A stretch of DNA of 52,547 nucleotides, from positions 1-52,547 of IMG/VR virus record IMGVR_UViG_3300021405_000017; one strand, given 5' to 3'. A program made the translations under genes and the position numbers. Under the pieces are notes generated by a model that was not told where the DNA came from, ran no database searches, and saw only the letters and a list, made by a program, of their open reading frames with translations. Below, piece by piece: positions 13,267 through 46,385 of the stretch (position 1 is its first letter; each line of letters starts with the position of its first letter). Origin of the DNA: a virus (taxonomy: Duplodnaviria; Caudoviricetes).

Positions 13267-13481
13267 CGTCGCTCGCCCTTCCCCGTCGCGGAATCGGCCC
13301 TTTCGCTTATGGCGGGAAGCCCCGCCGGGCGACGCGCCCCCGGGCGCGGTGTCTCACACTTCGCCCGAGCGGTCCGCGAAGACAAGAGGGCGCCGCGCAC
13401 AATTTGCGCTCCGTCCACGGGAATAGGCGCGGCCTGGTCCGATTCAATTCTCATCACCACGCCGCGCCTCCTTCCGTCTCA

Positions 13482-13977
13482 GCCGGCCCAGCCCCGCCTC
13501 GCCTTGCCAGATCAAGCCTAGTCACACCGCGCCTGGTCCAGCCTCGCCGGCCCCGCAAGCCGCGCCATGCCAGGCCACGCCTTGCCTCGCCAGGCCTCAC
13601 CATTCCGGCCGCGCCGAGCCCGGCCTTGCCTAGCCACGCCACGCCGCGCCAGACCCCGCCGCGCCGGCCTTGCCTTGCCTCGCCGGGCCTAGTCGCGCCC
13701 GGCCGCACCGAGCCTGGCCGAGCCCGGCCGTGCCGCGCCCCGCCGAGCCCTGCCTGCCTCGCCCCACCTCGCCAGGTCCAGCCTTGCCAGGCCTTGCCCC
13801 ACGCCGCACCTGCCTTGCCCTGCCTCGCCAAGTCGCGCCCGGCCTCGCCGGACCCAGCCCAGCCTGGCCACGCCTGCCTTGCCACGCCCAGCCTCACCGG
13901 GGCCGGCCGCGCCTTGTCTAGCCTAGCCATGCCTGGTCCGGCCGCGCCGTGCCGCGCCTGCCTTGCCTCGCCTCGTC
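13482..13977 (-). ncRNA. GGY-NN pentamer array 1 (about 7 putative guide units)
   Basis: Strict 5-nt periodicity (plus strand RCCNN, minus strand GGYNN) with 4-nt steps at 13482, 13546, 13604, 13663, 13752, 13808, 13872 and 13956. Intergenic, starting at the upstream gene's stop codon. RNA status inferred. Confidence 0.8.
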
Positions 13978-14280
13978 TCATACGGGCGAATCGAGCCGTT
14001 TGAACTCGCCTCGCCGTAGCTCGATGGCCGGGACACTCCGGATCTCGCTGCGCCGCGCCTTGATGACGAATTCGCGCCATTCTCGCCGCTGCTCCCGCTC
14101 TAAGCCGCGTACTAGGTCAGCCTGATATTTCTCCGACAACGCGCGCTTCACCCAAGCGTCGAACGGCAGCCGAGCCGCAGCTGCCGCCTCCTCGAACGCC
14201 TGCATGATCGGCGAGGCAAGGCGAATGTGGAGCGTCTTGCCGCCCACCTCGTCGTCATTGTCATTGATGGGTTCGTTCAT
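13978..14280 (-). CDS. Small hypothetical protein (possible RHH/HicB-like DNA-binding) between arrays 1 and 2
   Basis: AAGGAG RBS; TLHIRL...AAAAARLPFDAWVKRAL. Confidence 0.6.
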   Translation of the reverse strand: MNEPINDNDDEVGGKTLHIRLASPIMQAFEEAAAAARLPFDAWVKRALSEKYQADLVRGLEREQRREWREFVIKARRSEIRSVPAIELRRGEFKRLDSPV

Positions 14281-14301
14281 GACCCTCTCCTTTTCACTTT
14301 T

Positions 14302-15777
14302 GCCCGCCTTGCCTGCCTTGCCTTGCCGAGCCTTGTCGGACCCAGCCGGGACACGCCAAGCCTCGCCATGCAACGTCCCGCCGCGCCTGCCTTGCCATGT
14401 CGGGCCTAGCCGGGTCGGATCTTGCCGAACCCCGCCAAGCCTCGCCTCGCCCGGCCCGGTCAAGCCACGCCTGCCTTTGCCTTGCCATGCCTGGCCTTGC
14501 CCAGCCGCACCGTGCCGAACCCGGTCGGACCCGGCCAAGCCTGCCATGCCAGACCTCGCCTCGCCGCGCCTTGCCAAGCCTCGCCAAACCCGGCCATGTC
14601 GCATCCGGCCGCGCCTGCCTCGCCCCGCCTTGCCTCGCCGCGCCCTGCCCAGCCCGGCCAGGCCGAATCGTACCGGGTCTAGTCATGCCCCGCCGGCCTC
14701 GCCTTGCCCCGCCAGGCCCAGTCTCGGCTCGTCCTGCCTCGCCTAGTCCCGCCCAGTCGCGCCCGACCATGTCAGGCCGTGCCCGGTCCCGTCTTGCCGT
14801 GCCGCGCCTTGCCAGGCCTGCCTCGCCATGCCTCGCCAAGTCGCGCCTTGCCTCACCGCGTCTGGCCCGGCCTTGCCGCGCCAGGTCTCGCCGTGTCGCG
14901 CCTGCCTTGCCTTGCCTTGCCCGGCCCCGCCTCGCCGGGTCCCGCCATGCCTGCCTCGCCTCACCCCATCGTGCCGGGCCAAGGCGTGTCCCGACATGCC
15001 TCGGCATGCCAGGCCCGGCCCGGCCGGACCTCGCCTGCCTAGCCTCGCCCGGTCGCGCCGAGTCGAGCCTAGCCTCGCCGCGCCCCGCCGTACCGTGCCC
15101 GGCCGGGTCATGCCTGCCTCGCCCCGCCGCGCCAGCGCCATGCCAAGCCTTGCCGAGTCGCGCCTGGTCGTGCCTGGCCCGGCCAGGCCCAGCCTGGCCA
15201 TGCCTGCGTTGCCTTGCCTCATCAGGTCAGGCCATGCCTCGCCTCGCCCAGCCTCGCCTCGCCTCGCCTGTCTGGCCATGCTTCGCCTCGTCACATCATG
15301 CCGCGCCGGATCAAGCCTCGCCCGGTCCCGCCGTGCCGTGCCTGACCCCGCCTCATCAGGTCTGGCCATGCCTGCCTCGCCTCGCTGCGCCGGGGCTCGC
15401 CCGGCCAAGCCGGGTCGAGTCCCGCCTGGCCCCGCCTAGCCTGCCTTGCCGTGTCAGGCCTCGTCACGCCTCGCCGTGTCCGGCCCAGCCTAGTCTGGCC
15501 ATGCCTGCCGTGTCCGGCCCAAACCAAGCCTCGCCTTGCCGCGCCTTGCCTCGCCACGCCTGCCTTGCCCGGCCAGGCCAAGCCTTGTCACGTCGCACTG
15601 CATCCCGCCTCGCCTGCCTTGCCTGGCCTCGCCAGGTCTCGCCGCCCTTGTCCTGCCCAGCCTCGCCTGCCTTGTCAGGCCACGCCTAGCCGGACCGGGC
15701 CGGGCCTAGCCTTGCCTCGCCGCATCTGGCCCGGCTCTGTCATGCCAAGCCTGGCCTTGCCTGCCTTGCCGTGTCAG
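14302..15777 (-). ncRNA. GGY-NN pentamer array 2 (about 19 putative guide units)
   Basis: About 1.47 kb of pentamers. GGCAGGC-type junctions at 14311, 14385, 14469, 14539, 14613, 14692, 14816, 14900, 14949, 15033, 15112, 15202, 15266, 15370, 15439, 15503, 15558, 15612, 15665 and 15759. Confidence 0.8.
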
Positions 15778-16316
15778 GCGGCGGTTCGTGAGCCGCCGCC
15801 CTTGCCTTTGCCGCCTTTGCCGCCGCCGGCCTTGCCCGCACCTTTGCTCGCAGCCTTGGCGGCGCGGGCTCGTTCGGCGATGGTTTCGAGGTTGAGCAAC
15901 ATGGTGTCCAAGTCTGGACCGACGCCCAGGACGAGGGCGACCTTTCGCGCCCGCTCTATAGCGGCGGCGATGCGGTCAACCTCGTCCTCGAGGACTCGCA
16001 GCGCCCGCGCGCGCTGACCTTTGAACGAGGTCAATTCGCAAGAGGTCTGCGTTTTCGGCGCTCGATCGGGATCGACAATGTAGTAGGGCACTACGATGGT
16101 TTCGGTCTCCGTGATGACCTCAAACCGGACGTAACGGATCAGGGTGCGGGCCTGCTCGATCCAATGCTGTTGCGCCGCCTTTTTTACGTCCCATTCGAAG
16201 TCTTCATGGATTGGAGAGCCGGGAGGCCGAGCCGCTTCGACCACCTTCTCAGGCTCAAGACGCCCGCTGGAGTCTTCCAGCGAGCGAATAAAGGCGGCCT
16301 TGGCCGCCGACATCAT
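15774..16316 (-). CDS. Partner protein of the RAMP-like gene (function unknown)
   Basis: LEPEKVVEAARPPGSPIHEDFEWD..AAQQHWIEQARTLIR motif; ATGA-coupled to the RAMP-like gene; array 2 begins at its stop codon. Confidence 0.75.
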   Translation of the reverse strand: MMSAAKAAFIRSLEDSSGRLEPEKVVEAARPPGSPIHEDFEWDVKKAAQQHWIEQARTLIRYVRFEVITETETIVVPYYIVDPDRAPKTQTSCELTSFKGQRARALRVLEDEVDRIAAAIERARKVALVLGVGPDLDTMLLNLETIAERARAAKAASKGAGKAGGGKGGKGKGGGSRTAA

Positions 16317-17197
16317 TGCGACAGCCCCACCTCGTCGCCGCCGCCATTGCTCTTAGGCGGGCGCTTGCCGTTTGCGGCTTTCGGCGTCTTGCCCTTTGAC
16401 GCCTTGCCGCCCTCGCGCTGAGAGCTAGCCTCGCGCCGGATGATCTCGCTCTCGTACCACACCCACAATTCTTCGCTGTCGATATCGCTCGCCTCCGGGT
16501 TATCGTAGGCCGCCTGTTGCACCTTACGGCCGCCGTTCTTGACGATATCGAGCCAGCGCGGGTCACGCGCATCGACGACCTCCCAGCCGCCGTTGTTGAA
16601 GGTGCCCTTCTCTGTTCGCCCGTCGCCGATGCCGGTCACATCGCCGGCGTTCGACATCAAGTTGACGATCGCCCGCTCGGTCGTCAGCGTCTTGATGAAT
16701 TGGACGGTGAGTTTCACCGCCCATGTTTTGAACATCGCGCGGGTTCGAATGTCGGGCACGCGCTTCATGCCCTCAAGGCGGACCCAATCCATGTAGAGGT
16801 AGGGCTTGCCATAGACGTGGACCGTCTGGTCGACCACCTGCACCAGACAGCCGATCTCAGTCTTCGTTGCACCTGGCGTGCGGAGCGCCGCGGAACCGAG
16901 CGCCTTTTTGAAAGCGCCGGTAGGGAAGTGAAAAAGCGTAGGCGCGCTATCGTCGCGGCACCGATACATTGTGTCGCGGAATTCAGCGAGCGGGTCATGT
17001 TTCAAAATGACCTGCTTCTCGGCGTTGTTTTTAGCGCGCGACGGAAGCAACAGCTGCTGCTTCGCTTTCGCGCTCGGCCGATTCATCACCAGGGGCGCCG
17101 TGCCCAGAAGATGGAAGACAACGTAGCCTCGCTCGAAGCGCTTAAGCTCCGAGACCATCTCGGTGGTGTCGCGTGTTTTACTGGGTTTGGTAGCCAT
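16313..17197 (-). CDS. Stand-alone RAMP/Cas7(Csm3)-like RNA-binding protein (Vipr-like)
   Basis: N-terminal LLGTAPLVM (cf. RAMP TxSPLxIG), FHFPTGAFKKAL (cf. YIPGSSLKGAL) and C-terminal Gly-rich loop GIGDGRTEKGTFNNGGWEV. Flanked by pentamer arrays; AGGAGG RBS. Confidence 0.75.
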   Translation of the reverse strand: MATKPSKTRDTTEMVSELKRFERGYVVFHLLGTAPLVMNRPSAKAKQQLLLPSRAKNNAEKQVILKHDPLAEFRDTMYRCRDDSAPTLFHFPTGAFKKALGSAALRTPGATKTEIGCLVQVVDQTVHVYGKPYLYMDWVRLEGMKRVPDIRTRAMFKTWAVKLTVQFIKTLTTERAIVNLMSNAGDVTGIGDGRTEKGTFNNGGWEVVDARDPRWLDIVKNGGRKVQQAAYDNPEASDIDSEELWVWYESEIIRREASSQREGGKASKGKTPKAANGKRPPKSNGGGDEVGLSQ

Positions 17198-17299: not shown

Positions 17300-17939
17300 G
17301 CCTGCCGGCCGAGCCTTGCTTTGCCTCGCCATGCCGGGCCGTGCCACGCCGGGCCTGACCAGACCCAGCCCTGCCGAGCTGCGCCACGCCAAGTCGCGCC
17401 TGCCTCGCCCAGCCGGGCCGTGTCGGGCCTAGCCGCACCTCGCCCGGCCTCGCCAGGTCCGGCCGCGCCAAGCCTTGCCTGCGTCGCCGCGCCGTATCGC
17501 GCCGGACCGGGCCACGCCCCGCCAAGCCTCGGCCAGACAAGCCTCGCCAGGCCGCGCCTGCCTTGCCTCGCCATGCTGAGCCCAACCCCGCCAAGCCCCG
17601 CCGCGCCAGGTTCAGCCAGGTCCGGCCTCGCCTGCCTCGCCTTGCTCCGCCCCACCTCGCCGTGCCCCGTCACGCGTTGCCCGGTCGCGCCCAGCCGTGC
17701 CCCGTCTCGTCTAGCCATGCCTGCCTTGCCCCGCCGAGCCGGGTCTGGCCTTGCCCCGCCAAACCGCGCCACGCCAAGCCTGGCCTGACCCCGCCTGCGT
17801 CGCCTTGCCTCGCCTCGCCCGGCCAAGCCGCGCCCGGCCTCGCCATGTCGGGCTCAGCCCGGCCAGGCCTCGCCGGTCATGCCGCCCCTTATCGAGCCCA
17901 ACCCCGCCATGTCTGGCCAAACCGCGCCTGCCTTGCCTC
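17300..17939 (-). ncRNA. GGY-NN pentamer array 3 (about 8 putative guide units)
   Basis: Junctions at 17300, 17398, 17477, 17556, 17630, 17719, 17793, 17872 and 17926; spacings mostly 5n+4 (54-98 nt). Confidence 0.8.
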
Positions 17940-20940: not shown

Positions 20941-21028
20941 GCCGGTCCGGCCGCGCCACGTCCCGCCGCGCCATACCCAGCCGGATCAGACCGAGCCTCG
21001 CCGCGCCTCGCCGGCCTTACCTCGCCAT
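20941..21028 (-). ncRNA. Solo GGY-NN unit (array 4)
   Basis: 13 pentamers between 4-nt steps at 20941 and 21010; intergenic. Confidence 0.75.
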
Positions 21029-21034
21029 AGTTCT

Positions 21035-21385
21035 TCATGACCAAACGATGCGCTCGAACAGCACCGCCGGGCCGGCAATCCAGGGCAACGTTTCCGCGAT
21101 CTTGACGTTCTGGTAGAGCAGCGCGTTGCGCCGGTAGATGATGGTAGCGGCCTCGTTACGCGGCAGGCCCCTGTCATGGCCCATCTCGTCGACGAACATG
21201 TCCGCCCTCTTGAAGGCGAGGCCGCCATTGAAGTCAGCGAGCACACTGACGTGCTCGCAGTGCTCGCAGCCGATCAGGAGCTGCATCAGCCCGTTGATCT
21301 CGCGATAGGCCGGCCGCTCCGGCAGTTCGAACGTCCGCGTCTCGCTCGACTCGTCGGGCTTTAGGACGAGAAGCTTAGTTTCCAT
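21035..21385 (-). CDS. DUF3846-like hypothetical protein
   Basis: MFVDEMG...LPRNEAAT.IY...IAGPAVLF. Confidence 0.65.
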   Translation of the reverse strand: METKLLVLKPDESSETRTFELPERPAYREINGLMQLLIGCEHCEHVSVLADFNGGLAFKRADMFVDEMGHDRGLPRNEAATIIYRRNALLYQNVKIAETLPWIAGPAVLFERIVWS

Positions 21386-28867: not shown

Positions 28868-30300
28868 TGCCAGAGCGACCGCCCTATTTCACCGAGGCTC
28901 AATGGCAGGAGCACCTCCGCCGGACAGGACAGGCGCCGGCCGGCGAGGAGCAGAAGCCGCCGCCGCCCGACAACGGCCAGCCTCCGGGCGGCTTCAATGA
29001 GAGGGTGGTCCAATTCGACCAGGCTCGAAAGCGCAAGCCCAAGCCGCCGCCGACGCCGCCGCCGGGCGGCTGGCCCGAATGGGTGGGACGTCTACGGCGC
29101 GACGATCGCGGCCGAGTCATCCCCGACCTCGCCAACGTCCTGATCGCCCTGCGCGGCGAGGACAAGCTCGCCGAGGCCTGCGGCTTCGACGAGATGCTAC
29201 AGCACTCGATGGTGTTGAAGGAATGGCCGCGCCTGCCCGACGCCAAGCCGATCAAGCCGCCGCCGCACGAGACCGATGATGATGACATTAGCCGGATCCA
29301 GGAGTGGTTGCAGCGCATGGGCCTGCCCCGGATCGGGCGCGAGATCGTCGGCCAGGCGGTCGAGGTCTTCGCCCGCGAGCGCAGCTTTCACCCGGTGCGC
29401 GATTGGCTCAACGGCCTCAGCTGGGACGGCGTACGCCGAATCGACCGCTGGCTGTTCGTCTATTTCGGCGCGGAAGCCGAGGATGATGACGCGATTGAAT
29501 ACGTCAGCGCGATCGGCAAGATGTTCCTCATCGCCATGGTGGCGCGGGTGTTTCGACCCGGCTGCCAAGCCGATTACATGCTCGTGCTCGAGGGCGACCA
29601 GGGCATCCTCAAATCAAGCGCCTGCCGCGCGCTCGCCGGCCAATGGTTCTCGGACAGCTTGCCGGATGACATTCAGGGCAAGGACGCCCGCCAGCACTTG
29701 CGCGGCAAATGGCTGATTGAAGTCTCCGAGCTTGCCGCCTTTTCCAAGGCCGAGACCGAGGCGCTGAAAGCCTTCATCACCCGGCGCGAGGAACGCTACC
29801 GTCCGCCCTTCGGCCGGCATGACGTGGTCGAAAAGCGGCAATGCCTGTTCATCGGCACCACCAACGAGGAGAGCTACATCAAGGACCAGACCGGCGGGCG
29901 CCGCTATTGGCCGGTCAAATGCCTGTCGATCGACGTCGAGGGCCTCGCCGGCGTCCGCGACCAGTTATTCGCCGAGGCCTTGATCCGGTTCCGCATGGGT
30001 GACCGCTGGTGGCCGACCGCCGCGGACGAGGCCAGGTTCTTCAAGCCGCAACAGGAGAGACGGGAGGAAGATGATCCGTGGGTTCCGCCCGTGGCGACCT
30101 GGCAGCAGGGCTTCCCATCGGACAAGGTGACGGTGTCGCAAGTTGCCCGCGAATGTTTGGGGTTTGACGGCAATTCCCGCATTGACCCGCGAGTACAGCA
30201 GCGGATCGCTAAGATACTCAAGAGGTTAGGTTGGGCGCAACTGCCGAGGACGATGCACGGCCGCTTTTACGCCCGGCCGCGAGGCGACGACGACGCATGA
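28867..30300 (+). CDS. VirE/VapE-family SF3 helicase (replication)
   Basis: FHPVRDWL, Walker A LEGDQGILKSS, Walker B LIEVSEL, FIGTTN, DQTGGRRYWPV. Confidence 0.9.
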   Translation: MPERPPYFTEAQWQEHLRRTGQAPAGEEQKPPPPDNGQPPGGFNERVVQFDQARKRKPKPPPTPPPGGWPEWVGRLRRDDRGRVIPDLANVLIALRGEDKLAEACGFDEMLQHSMVLKEWPRLPDAKPIKPPPHETDDDDISRIQEWLQRMGLPRIGREIVGQAVEVFARERSFHPVRDWLNGLSWDGVRRIDRWLFVYFGAEAEDDDAIEYVSAIGKMFLIAMVARVFRPGCQADYMLVLEGDQGILKSSACRALAGQWFSDSLPDDIQGKDARQHLRGKWLIEVSELAAFSKAETEALKAFITRREERYRPPFGRHDVVEKRQCLFIGTTNEESYIKDQTGGRRYWPVKCLSIDVEGLAGVRDQLFAEALIRFRMGDRWWPTAADEARFFKPQQERREEDDPWVPPVATWQQGFPSDKVTVSQVARECLGFDGNSRIDPRVQQRIAKILKRLGWAQLPRTMHGRFYARPRGDDDA

Positions 30301-45512: not shown

Positions 45513-45630
45513 AAGATGACGACGGCGAGGACTTCCCGCCCACGCAACACCCGGTTCGAGAATTCATAACAGCCAGCCTTTTCGTTCTCGGCATCGTCGC
45601 CTTCGTTTGTTGGCTGCTTTGGAGGTGGAT

Positions 45631-45861
45631 ATGAGCCTCGCTGGAATCCTTTTAGGCCTCATCAATGTCGCGATCGTCGTCGCGATCTTGATGCTGATCG
45701 GCGCGATCGTCGTTTGGTTCCTTCAGTGGATCTTCAGCGTCGCCGTGCCGGCCAACGTGCAGAAGCTCTACATCGGCATCGTCGCGCTGATCGCCCTCTA
45801 CATGATCGTGGCGCTCTTGCTCGGCTTGCCGGTCGTCCACCTGATCGGCCGATACGACTAA
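45631..45861 (+). CDS. Small membrane protein (2 TM)
   Basis: GGAGG RBS; hydrophobic. Confidence 0.7.
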   Translation: MSLAGILLGLINVAIVVAILMLIGAIVVWFLQWIFSVAVPANVQKLYIGIVALIALYMIVALLLGLPVVHLIGRYD

Positions 45862-45866
45862 AGGTC

Positions 45867-45983
45867 GGCGGCGGCCCGCGCTAAACGGACCGCCGCCCCT
45901 TGCCTTGCCCAGCCCTGCCGCGCCTGGCCCCACCGGACCGGGCCGAGCCGTGCCTTACCACGCAACGCCAAGCTTGCTTGGCG
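45867..45983 (-). ncRNA. Solo GGY-NN unit (array 5) with its own promoter and 3' hairpin
   Basis: 14 pentamers at 45902-45971. Upstream TTGAGC-N18-TAGGTT (46020-45991); downstream hairpin 45867-45897. Confidence 0.75.
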
Positions 45984-46034
45984 CGCCCTTAACCTAGTTC
46001 GATCAGCCATCTTAGCTCAAGCCAAGAGTCCCGA

Positions 46035-46385
46035 ATGCTACCGGCGACGTACAATCTCGATCTGTATAGAGGCGACACGCTAAGGTTACAGGTAAAGTTG
46101 TGGAACAACGAGGAGCGTGATGATCCGGCCGATTTGGATGGCGTGATCGCAGCGAGCCAGTTTCGTGTACGGCCCGACGCTGAGCCGATGGTCGAGATGG
46201 CGTGCGCGATAACTTTGCCGAACGTCGTCGATCTAACCCTCAGTTCAGACGCGAGCCGGATGTTACCAAAAAAGGGCGTGTGGGATCTGGAATTGCGTTT
46301 CCCAGGCGGGGACGTATTTACACCGCTAGCCGGGAAAATGACGCTGAAACCTGACGTAACGCTACCGCCAGGCGCCGCGCCCTGA
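46035..46385 (+). CDS. BppU-like structural adaptor domain protein
   Basis: [10 protein letters not shown]...DL.G..AASQ.R...GVWDLEL...T.LAG...PDVT. Confidence 0.7.

Follow-up and report, generated by a model that had tools for sequence, protein, structure and literature searches.

VIPR systems, first described in 2026 and mainly from two Enterobacteria/Pseudomonas clades, combine a minimal RAMP protein (Vipr) and an accessory component (Vap) with vrRNAs built of alternating GGY and NN elements, Y being a pyrimidine and N any base (bioRxiv 10.64898/2026.04.26.720920). Here we describe a repeat unit of this kind in a viral record of IMG/VR (IMGVR_UViG_3300021405_000017, positions 1 to 52,547; this whole 52.5-kb stretch is referred to below as the window), which has 65% GC and carries integrase, large terminase and collagen-like tail fibre genes. 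The unit, which occupies 45898-45962 and is read on the minus strand as 13 tandem YNNGG repeats, is probably a stand-alone vrRNA of the phage's own VIPR, directed against the alleles that kin phages carry of a tail-fibre-module gene and situated beside a mismatched resident allele of that gene.

The published accounts supply most of the terms in which such a unit can be read. Characterised vrRNAs comprise 9-16 YNNGG repeats followed by a structured, invariable 3' tail, with at least four repeats asked for by callers (bioRxiv 10.64898/2026.04.26.720920). They are described as small RNAs of ~100 nt that co-purify with Vipr, itself a minimal RAMP protein with a G-rich loop. As the same preprint describes, the NN dinucleotides can read either strand of double-stranded DNA, passing over one base in every unit, this base usually falls on a codon wobble position, and binding represses transcription; natural targets are defined by a cut-off of ≥80% NN match, above which the authors report no self-target, and the legend to figure S18 describes “staggered arrays” in which vrRNAs overlap by 1 nt (10.64898/2026.04.26.720920). 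In the SUSP1 structures, target engagement runs 3' to 5' along the vrRNA, beginning from the tail (10.64898/2026.04.26.720927). Solo vrRNAs have been described on satellites and on VIPR-null phages, where the self-match lies below the match to rivals and where satellite solo vrRNAs redirect the VIPR of the helper phage; in that account an array is labelled solo if the nearest Vipr is >20 kb away, and SUSP1 vrRNA4 is given a six-unit, 18-bp footprint (Lopez et al., 10.64898/2026.10.15.759431). VIPR arrays are also recoverable by their 5-nt entropy periodicity (10.64898/2026.10.21.760802).

The repeat unit and its place among described guides

The unit lies in a 173-nt intergenic gap of the late operon, between a membrane-protein gene (45607-45861, plus strand) and the gene termed here the neighbour gene. 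The features of this region are as follows.

45867-45897, minus strand: 3' stem-loop that immediately follows the last repeat and may serve as terminator or tail
45898-45962, minus strand: guide region of 13 tandem YNNGG repeats, RNA 5' end at right, the NN dinucleotides forming the code
45963-45984, minus strand: putative 5' leader, containing a 16-nt palindrome (45967-45982) and two degenerate units that resemble the repeat
45991-46020, minus strand: promoter-like motif TTGAGC-N18-TAGGTT, single occurrence in the window
46035-46385, plus strand: neighbour gene, 116 aa, phrog_1084, with a weak LtfC-like beta-sandwich match, upstream of a collagen-like tail fibre gene
46284-46322, plus strand: partial match of the unit to the resident neighbour gene, read with a 1-nt skip, 322 nt from the unit

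On the minus strand, all 13 repeats have a pyrimidine first and GG last; viewed on the plus strand, the guide region forms 13 clean CCNNG units followed by two degenerate ones to 45972, and in plus order the NN series is TT TT CA CT GC TG CC GG GG GA GT TT AC. The GC-rich hairpin (arms GGCGGCGG...CCGCCGCC) starts 6 nt past the stop of the plus-strand gene 45607-45861, and the minus-strand fold of 45850-45980 has a minimum free energy of -69.5 kcal/mol (z = -2.3), with 5/200 shuffles equally stable. The RNA would start near 45984, a putative position taken from the -10-like hexamer alone. The repeat unit, the hairpin and the promoter-like motif had been pointed out in an earlier, sequence-only reading of the window, whose statements about the sequence (a repeat unit antisense to the late operon, with a hairpin downstream and TTGAGC-N18-TAGGTT upstream) all hold. 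Its remark that the neighbour gene leans toward A/T-rich codons is likewise borne out by a third-codon-position GC content (GC3) of 0.64, the lowest among 12 genes compared (others 0.71-0.86), a bias that would be compatible with import of the segment by recombination.

No Rfam family matched in the window, nor were tRNAs found there. A CRISPR array was rejected for the unit, whose period is only 5 nt as against direct repeats of ~25-40 nt separated by contiguous spacers, and which belongs to no Rfam family. Three further readings of the repeats, as a Rho-utilisation site or C-rich RNA on the plus strand, as G-quadruplex or i-motif DNA, and as coding sequence for a pentapeptide-repeat protein in a 15-nt register, were dropped because the 5-nt period occurs in all phases with 4-nt steps and because of the VIPR descriptions.

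Compared with VIPR as described (10.64898/2026.04.26.720920), the locus is alike in several respects: its 13 YNNGG repeats fall among the 9-16 published; the phage carries, between long repeat arrays, a gene for a RAMP-fold protein and another small gene; and the code skips 1 nt and reads codon positions 1-2, fits competing-phage targets and has no ≥80% self-match for the unit. It differs in that the unit stands in the late operon, 28.7 kb from vipr (45898 minus 17197) and thus beyond the >20 kb at which arrays are labelled solo, in being known from sequence alone, and in ending in a simple hairpin in place of a demonstrably conserved tail or pseudoknot. The solo vrRNAs of F5 satellites and VIPR-null SUSP1-like phages (10.64898/2026.10.15.759431) resemble the unit in standing apart from a vipr operon, in a self-match below the match to relatives, which that paper treats as autoimmunity avoidance, and in a register aligned to the wobble position. 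The published solos, however, sit on elements without vipr, either where a VIPR locus formerly stood or in non-coding DNA of a satellite, whereas the carrier here is VIPR-positive: the same 52.5-kb record encodes vipr-vap, so that the unit is not a solo in the sense of a carrier without vipr and vap. Moreover, the solos described there aim at vipr genes, other vrRNAs, satellites and host REP elements, whereas the unit aims at a tail-fibre-module gene, and, unlike them, it lies directly beside the resident allele of its target gene.

The system, its code, the wobble logic, solo vrRNAs and discrimination through a lower self-match are already published. In the main-text passages of the VIPR preprints, supplements apart, we found no dispersed guide inside a VIPR-positive phage, and no guide against a structural gene of kin or beside a resident non-matching allele. 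Virus-borne mini-CRISPR arrays offer a further parallel, in that they target related viruses and the carrier is spared as its own copy of the target differs. These arrays consist of CRISPR repeats and contiguous spacers and depend on host Cas proteins, whereas here the code is non-contiguous and the RAMP protein is encoded by the phage.

Fit of the code to alleles of related phages

The sequence-only reading had taken the unit for a guide that matches the adjacent structural gene. The guide-like form, the reading of codon positions 1-2 and the relation to that gene stand; the best match, however, is to relatives' alleles (24/26 and 23/26 guide bases) and not to the resident one (18/26). The relatives comprise 48 non-self homologues of the neighbour gene drawn from 5.8 billion proteins, of which the four closest are 69-76% identical, and each was scored by taking, per residue, the best-fitting first two codon bases. 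At the aligned site the homologue P0004 reads DLQLAWPGGDVFT, which is compatible with 24/26 guide bases (92%) and with 12/13 units; a second homologue, P0002, is compatible with 23/26. Both values are the maxima that the peptides allow, while 18/26 is the actual score of the resident DNA. When the order of the NN dinucleotides was shuffled 300 times against the same 48 proteins, the maximum was 20. The comparison of alleles across related phages, which the sequence-only reading had named as a check, came out strongly positive. By this comparison, the code is shown to fit codons 85-97 of the LtfC-like tail-fibre-module gene in the closest known relatives, peptide DLQLAWPGGDVFT.

Real repeat units provided a second null. 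With 12-unit windows on the neighbour-gene family, the unit reached 24/24, 12 main-array units 15-17 and the sister unit described below 16; on the sister's gene family, the unit itself reached only 17/24. At the DNA level, 80 IMG/VR loci with neighbour-gene homologues at 36-55% identity were scored. The best match was 21/26 (81%), found in three loci (L129, L147 and L148), against a shuffle maximum of 19 in 100, and of the 12 best matches, 11 fell in frame on the aligned site, where the wobble position is the base skipped. Closer relatives did not emerge from protein-seeded scans of genome contigs and of viral and metagenome collections; blastn of the region against GenBank phages gave no match, and tblastn for relatives returned only 23 Streptomyces phage records at 30-34% identity.

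Within the window, on both strands and in both orders, the best match of the unit is the site at 46284-46322 in the neighbour gene, where 18/26 bases (69%) agree at codon positions 1-2; a 15-unit parse gives 19/30 (63%). This best self-match lies under the 80% self-target cut-off, which two short main-array units exceed (see below). The alignment confirms the seven consecutive perfect dinucleotides at 46302-46322 and the two Leu first-position swaps of the sequence-only reading: the run has a 20-bp footprint, lies 340 nt from the unit and is in frame, the skipped base being the wobble one, and the six mismatched units correspond to a D, the two Leu swaps, and the changes Q to E, A to R and W to F. 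On the guide, the repeats opposite these mismatches are the 3'-proximal six, those adjoining the 3' hairpin. The comparison with relatives identifies the seven perfect units as the part of the site (PGGDVFT) shared by resident and target-type alleles, and the mismatches as the positions where the alleles differ; in detail, the allele pair differs at five guide units, and the sixth matches neither allele. At guide unit 3, Q (CA) is present in 53/54 homologue loci in which the site was located, the resident E being a rare state.

The sequence-only reading had staked its proposed match on enrichment over a permutation background, by which the resident match, considered by itself, is not compelling. 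In NN-order shuffles searched window-wide on both strands and in both orders, a total of at least 18 was reached in 142/500 and is not significant, whereas a run of at least seven appeared in 4/500. Other skip periods gave 18 bases with a run of 6 (period 2) and 17 with a run of 5 (periods 4 and 6). By the sequence comparisons above, enrichment is decided by the relatives' alleles and not by the resident total.

A second dispersed unit of the window serves as an independent replicate.

20951-21010, minus strand: dispersed 12-repeat sister unit, just downstream of gene 21035-21385 (minus strand), whose stop lies 25 nt away; 3.8 kb from vipr

At this distance, the sister unit falls short of the >20 kb by which solo arrays are labelled. 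Against its own resident neighbour it scores 19/30, within the shuffle range (18/24 in a 12-unit parse). Against 119 non-self homologues of 21035-21385, however, it reaches 25/30 in P0082 and P0074 and 24/30 in P0051, compared with a shuffle maximum of 22 in 300, and the 12-unit parse on the homologues gives a best of 23/24. At the DNA level, 21/24 was found at the aligned site in 63 IMG/VR loci (shuffle maximum 19 in 100); the exact target pattern of the sister unit had no match. As judged from these alignments, then, both dispersed units adjoin the resident homologue of their best-fitting family, and in each case the fit to non-self alleles exceeds that to self. Another locus (L202, 5073-5309) has a homologue, 66% identical, of the gene beside the sister unit, with four consecutive pentamers ~2.2 kb downstream; by its sequence, this is probably another VIPR-positive phage of the lineage.

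The setting of the unit at 45898-45962 was also compared with that in related phages. One locus (L121) is syntenic, with terS, TerL, the membrane protein and the neighbour gene in the same order (58%, 65%, 60% and 55% identity, respectively), and has ~3 nt and no tract between the membrane-protein and neighbour genes. The upstream gap is shorter than 173 nt in 76/78 measurable homologue loci, most of which have a few bases or an overlap, and no tract of at least seven units occurs within 4 kb in any of the 80 homologue loci. On this comparative evidence, the tract is an insertion in the late operon. In a partial relative (L025), the membrane-protein homologue resides in a lysis cassette, with no homologue of the neighbour gene, so that this locus did not enter the comparison.

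Readings of the unit and their rivals

Under the reading that we favour, the minus strand would be transcribed into an RNA of ~120 nt consisting of a short leader, the 13 YNNGG repeats and the 3' stem-loop. Vipr protomers encoded at 16313-17197 would coat the GGY scaffold, and the coated RNA would present its 13 NN dinucleotides to double-stranded DNA, reading it with one base skipped per unit. Binding in a competing kin phage with the DLQLA(W/F)PGGDVFT allele would block transcription of its tail-fibre genes. The resident copy would escape silencing because its six mismatched units face the 3'-proximal repeats, where engagement starts in SUSP1; if engagement from the 3' end carries over, the resident site would be blocked at the entry point despite its perfect 5' half.

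Several observations weigh against this reading. The “own promoter” assigned to the unit by the sequence-only reading exists as a motif, but TTGAGC-N18-TAGGTT agrees with the sigma-70 consensus at only 7/12 positions, a weak match, and was not called at 46020-45991 by a consensus promoter scan. No U-run follows the hairpin at 45867-45897 on either strand, and the hairpin is not a tail common to other units, as neither the sister unit nor the staggered arrays have a copy. The lone RNA-library contig on the unit (sequencing run X3, 197 nt, depth 2.6, 45924-46120) could come from either strand, spans the proposed start near 45984, and may be carried-over DNA. The scores for P0004 and P0002 rest on peptides, and at each of the two Leu units one base may have to be subtracted; the DNA-level best of 81% is barely over the published 80% cut-off, and exact 13-, 11- and 12-unit guide patterns had 0 matches in IMG/VR, JGI metagenome contigs and genome contigs. 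Nor does the resident allele stand out: its score of 18 is within the distant-homologue range of 13-21, so by sequence it is not unusually divergent, simply unfit to the code, and its Leu codon forms are common among relatives and are therefore no proof of selected escape. With seven perfect units, as compared with the six-unit footprint of SUSP1 vrRNA4, binding to the resident site might still occur. Finally, no general tendency of guides to lie next to partial matches emerged: among isolated tracts of at least 10 units in the window and 120 listed viral loci, 2/81 had a local match at p≤0.02, which is chance level, one of them being the window's sister unit; the local total of the unit's own 15-unit parse in this test had p=0.05.

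Run X2, whose kind is guessed to be DNA, yielded a 223-nt contig at 45917-46139, nearly coincident with that of X3; X2 and X3 come from different studies, and each gave one short, low-depth, identical contig on approximately the same 200 nt of the 1.2-kb stretch examined, with no cover elsewhere in that stretch. Run X1, which may be the source, covers all of it. No variant letters are listed at the target site in the sequencing-run contigs.

An extension of the favoured reading, which we put forward only tentatively and consider doubtful, is that the guide and the mismatched resident allele form a linked poison-antidote cassette. The guide would silence a co-infecting or resident kin phage that has the sensitive allele, while the linked insensitive allele would protect the carrier; recombinants would survive only with both parts, and the 0.5-kb module could spread in the manner of an allele drive. 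The position of both dispersed units beside the resident homologue of the best-fit gene hints at a rule for where dispersed VIPR guides are placed. In a bolder, less likely version, adjacency would stem from the origin of the guide, written locally from a homologous gene.

Self-regulation, in which the guide would bind the resident site at 46302-46322 and so damp transcription of the resident tail-fibre module or set its timing (silence in the lysogen would be one instance), is unlikely. The seven consecutive perfect units 340 nt away, a run seldom matched by the window-wide shuffles (4/500), would suit it, as would the six-unit, 18-bp footprint published for SUSP1 vrRNA4. Yet the resident match is 69% (63% with 15 units), below the 80% cut-off, with every mismatch at the repeats from which SUSP1 engagement starts; moreover, self-regulation leaves unexplained the 12/12-unit fit to relatives' alleles, and the sister unit likewise fits non-self better.

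It is also improbable that the unit is an inert relic, a guide that once functioned or was acquired by recombination and now persists in an intergenic insertion, neither transcribed nor loaded. In favour of a relic are the want of a solid promoter, a conserved tail and clear RNA evidence, and an orthologous tract in 0/80 relative loci and none in L121. Decay would cost both the scaffold and the fit of the code, and the intact tract therefore speaks against a relic: 13/13 repeats keep the Y..GG scaffold, and the code is compatible with a living allele at 24/26. A redirecting or decoy guide, which would load a competitor's Vipr and divert that protein rather than arm the phage's own, has a precedent in the solo vrRNAs redirecting helper VIPR described by Lopez et al. 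(10.64898/2026.10.15.759431), but is very improbable for a phage that encodes its own vipr-vap and a guide whose fitted site is a phage structural gene rather than a multicopy host repeat. Chance, whereby a pentamer tract of other function would coincidentally resemble the neighbour gene, is strongly disfavoured: although 142/500 shuffles attain 18/26 window-wide and local matches beside isolated tracts stay at chance level (2/81 at p≤0.02), 0/300 shuffles exceeded 20 on the homologue set against 24 observed, other real units score 15-17/24 against 24 in 12-unit windows, the DNA-level matches pile up on one in-frame site, and the sister unit independently replicates the pattern.

If the unit is indeed a stand-alone guide against kin alleles, this soil-phage example indicates that a phage with VIPR can place individual guides at a great distance from its vipr locus, and that guides so scattered can aim at tail-fibre-module genes of the closest kin while lying beside the phage's own non-matching allele. 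Should the linkage be functional, it would offer a concrete case of allele-specific exclusion between related phages, with self and non-self kept apart without a protospacer-adjacent motif (PAM). The allele pair would also constitute a natural experiment on the mismatch tolerance of VIPR and on the role of the 3'-proximal repeats.

The VIPR locus of the window

The genes and arrays to which the unit is ascribed are as follows.

13457-15765, minus strand: main staggered repeat arrays, on the downstream side of vap; a small minus-strand open reading frame breaks them at 13963-14315
15774-16316, minus strand: vap candidate, accessory gene, phrog_15946, abutting vipr and directly downstream of it
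16313-17197, minus strand: vipr candidate, RAMP-fold protein, phrog_4652, from predicted structure and homologue alignment
17309-17850, minus strand: repeat array upstream of vipr

Both minus-strand genes (16313-17197 and 15774-16316) lie between arrays. The pentamer occupies 13457-13962, 14316-15765 and 17309-17850, as well as the short tract at 20951-21010, in a single orientation throughout and never in the opposite one. The main arrays are kilobase-long, with 4-nt phase steps between pentamer runs, and these steps fit the published “staggered arrays” with their 1-nt overlaps.

Assignment of the vipr candidate is by fold, glycine-rich loop and context. An AlphaFold2 model of 16313-17197, built with 16 homologues from array-bearing viral loci, has pLDDT 82 and pTM 0.77; all of its PDB matches at E≤0.001 (13/13) are chains of CRISPR type III/VII effector complexes, with a best E of 2e-4, and comparison with the Csm3 chain of Staphylococcus epidermidis gives TMt 0.55. 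The glycine-rich loop motif G.G.G..R....G is invariant in the 17-sequence alignment of vipr homologues.

Scanning IMG/VR with the exact pattern (CCNNG)x12 returned at least 120 stretches, the loci being chosen on that pattern alone. Among the 120 loci listed, tblastn detected homologues of vipr in 21 and of vap in 16, and in loci holding both, the two lie side by side by their coordinates. The 21/120 refers to window-type vipr homologues in the fetched flanks; the remaining loci may have other Vipr types, a vipr beyond the flank, or solo arrays. One of the pentamer loci (L003, 6308-7012) has 141 consecutive pentamers (705 nt) in one phase and without any 4-nt step, far beyond the 9-16 repeats of described vrRNAs.

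The small open reading frame at 13978-14290 (minus strand; MNEPINDNDDE...) lies between two arrays and shares its strand with vipr and vap; it had no Pfam or PHROG match and one weak tblastn match, in L107. An inverted repeat GGCGGCGG...CCGCCGCC, similar to that at 45867-45897 beside the unit, is located at 15777-15800, where the vap coding sequence ends and just before the downstream array. As to the two short main-array units above the self-target cut-off, a 9-repeat unit (17803-17847) scores 15/18 at 13360, such scores being easier to reach by chance for short units, and an 8-repeat unit (13560-13599) agrees with a resident plus-strand site at 29125-29148 in 15/16 NN bases (94%), above the 80% cut-off.

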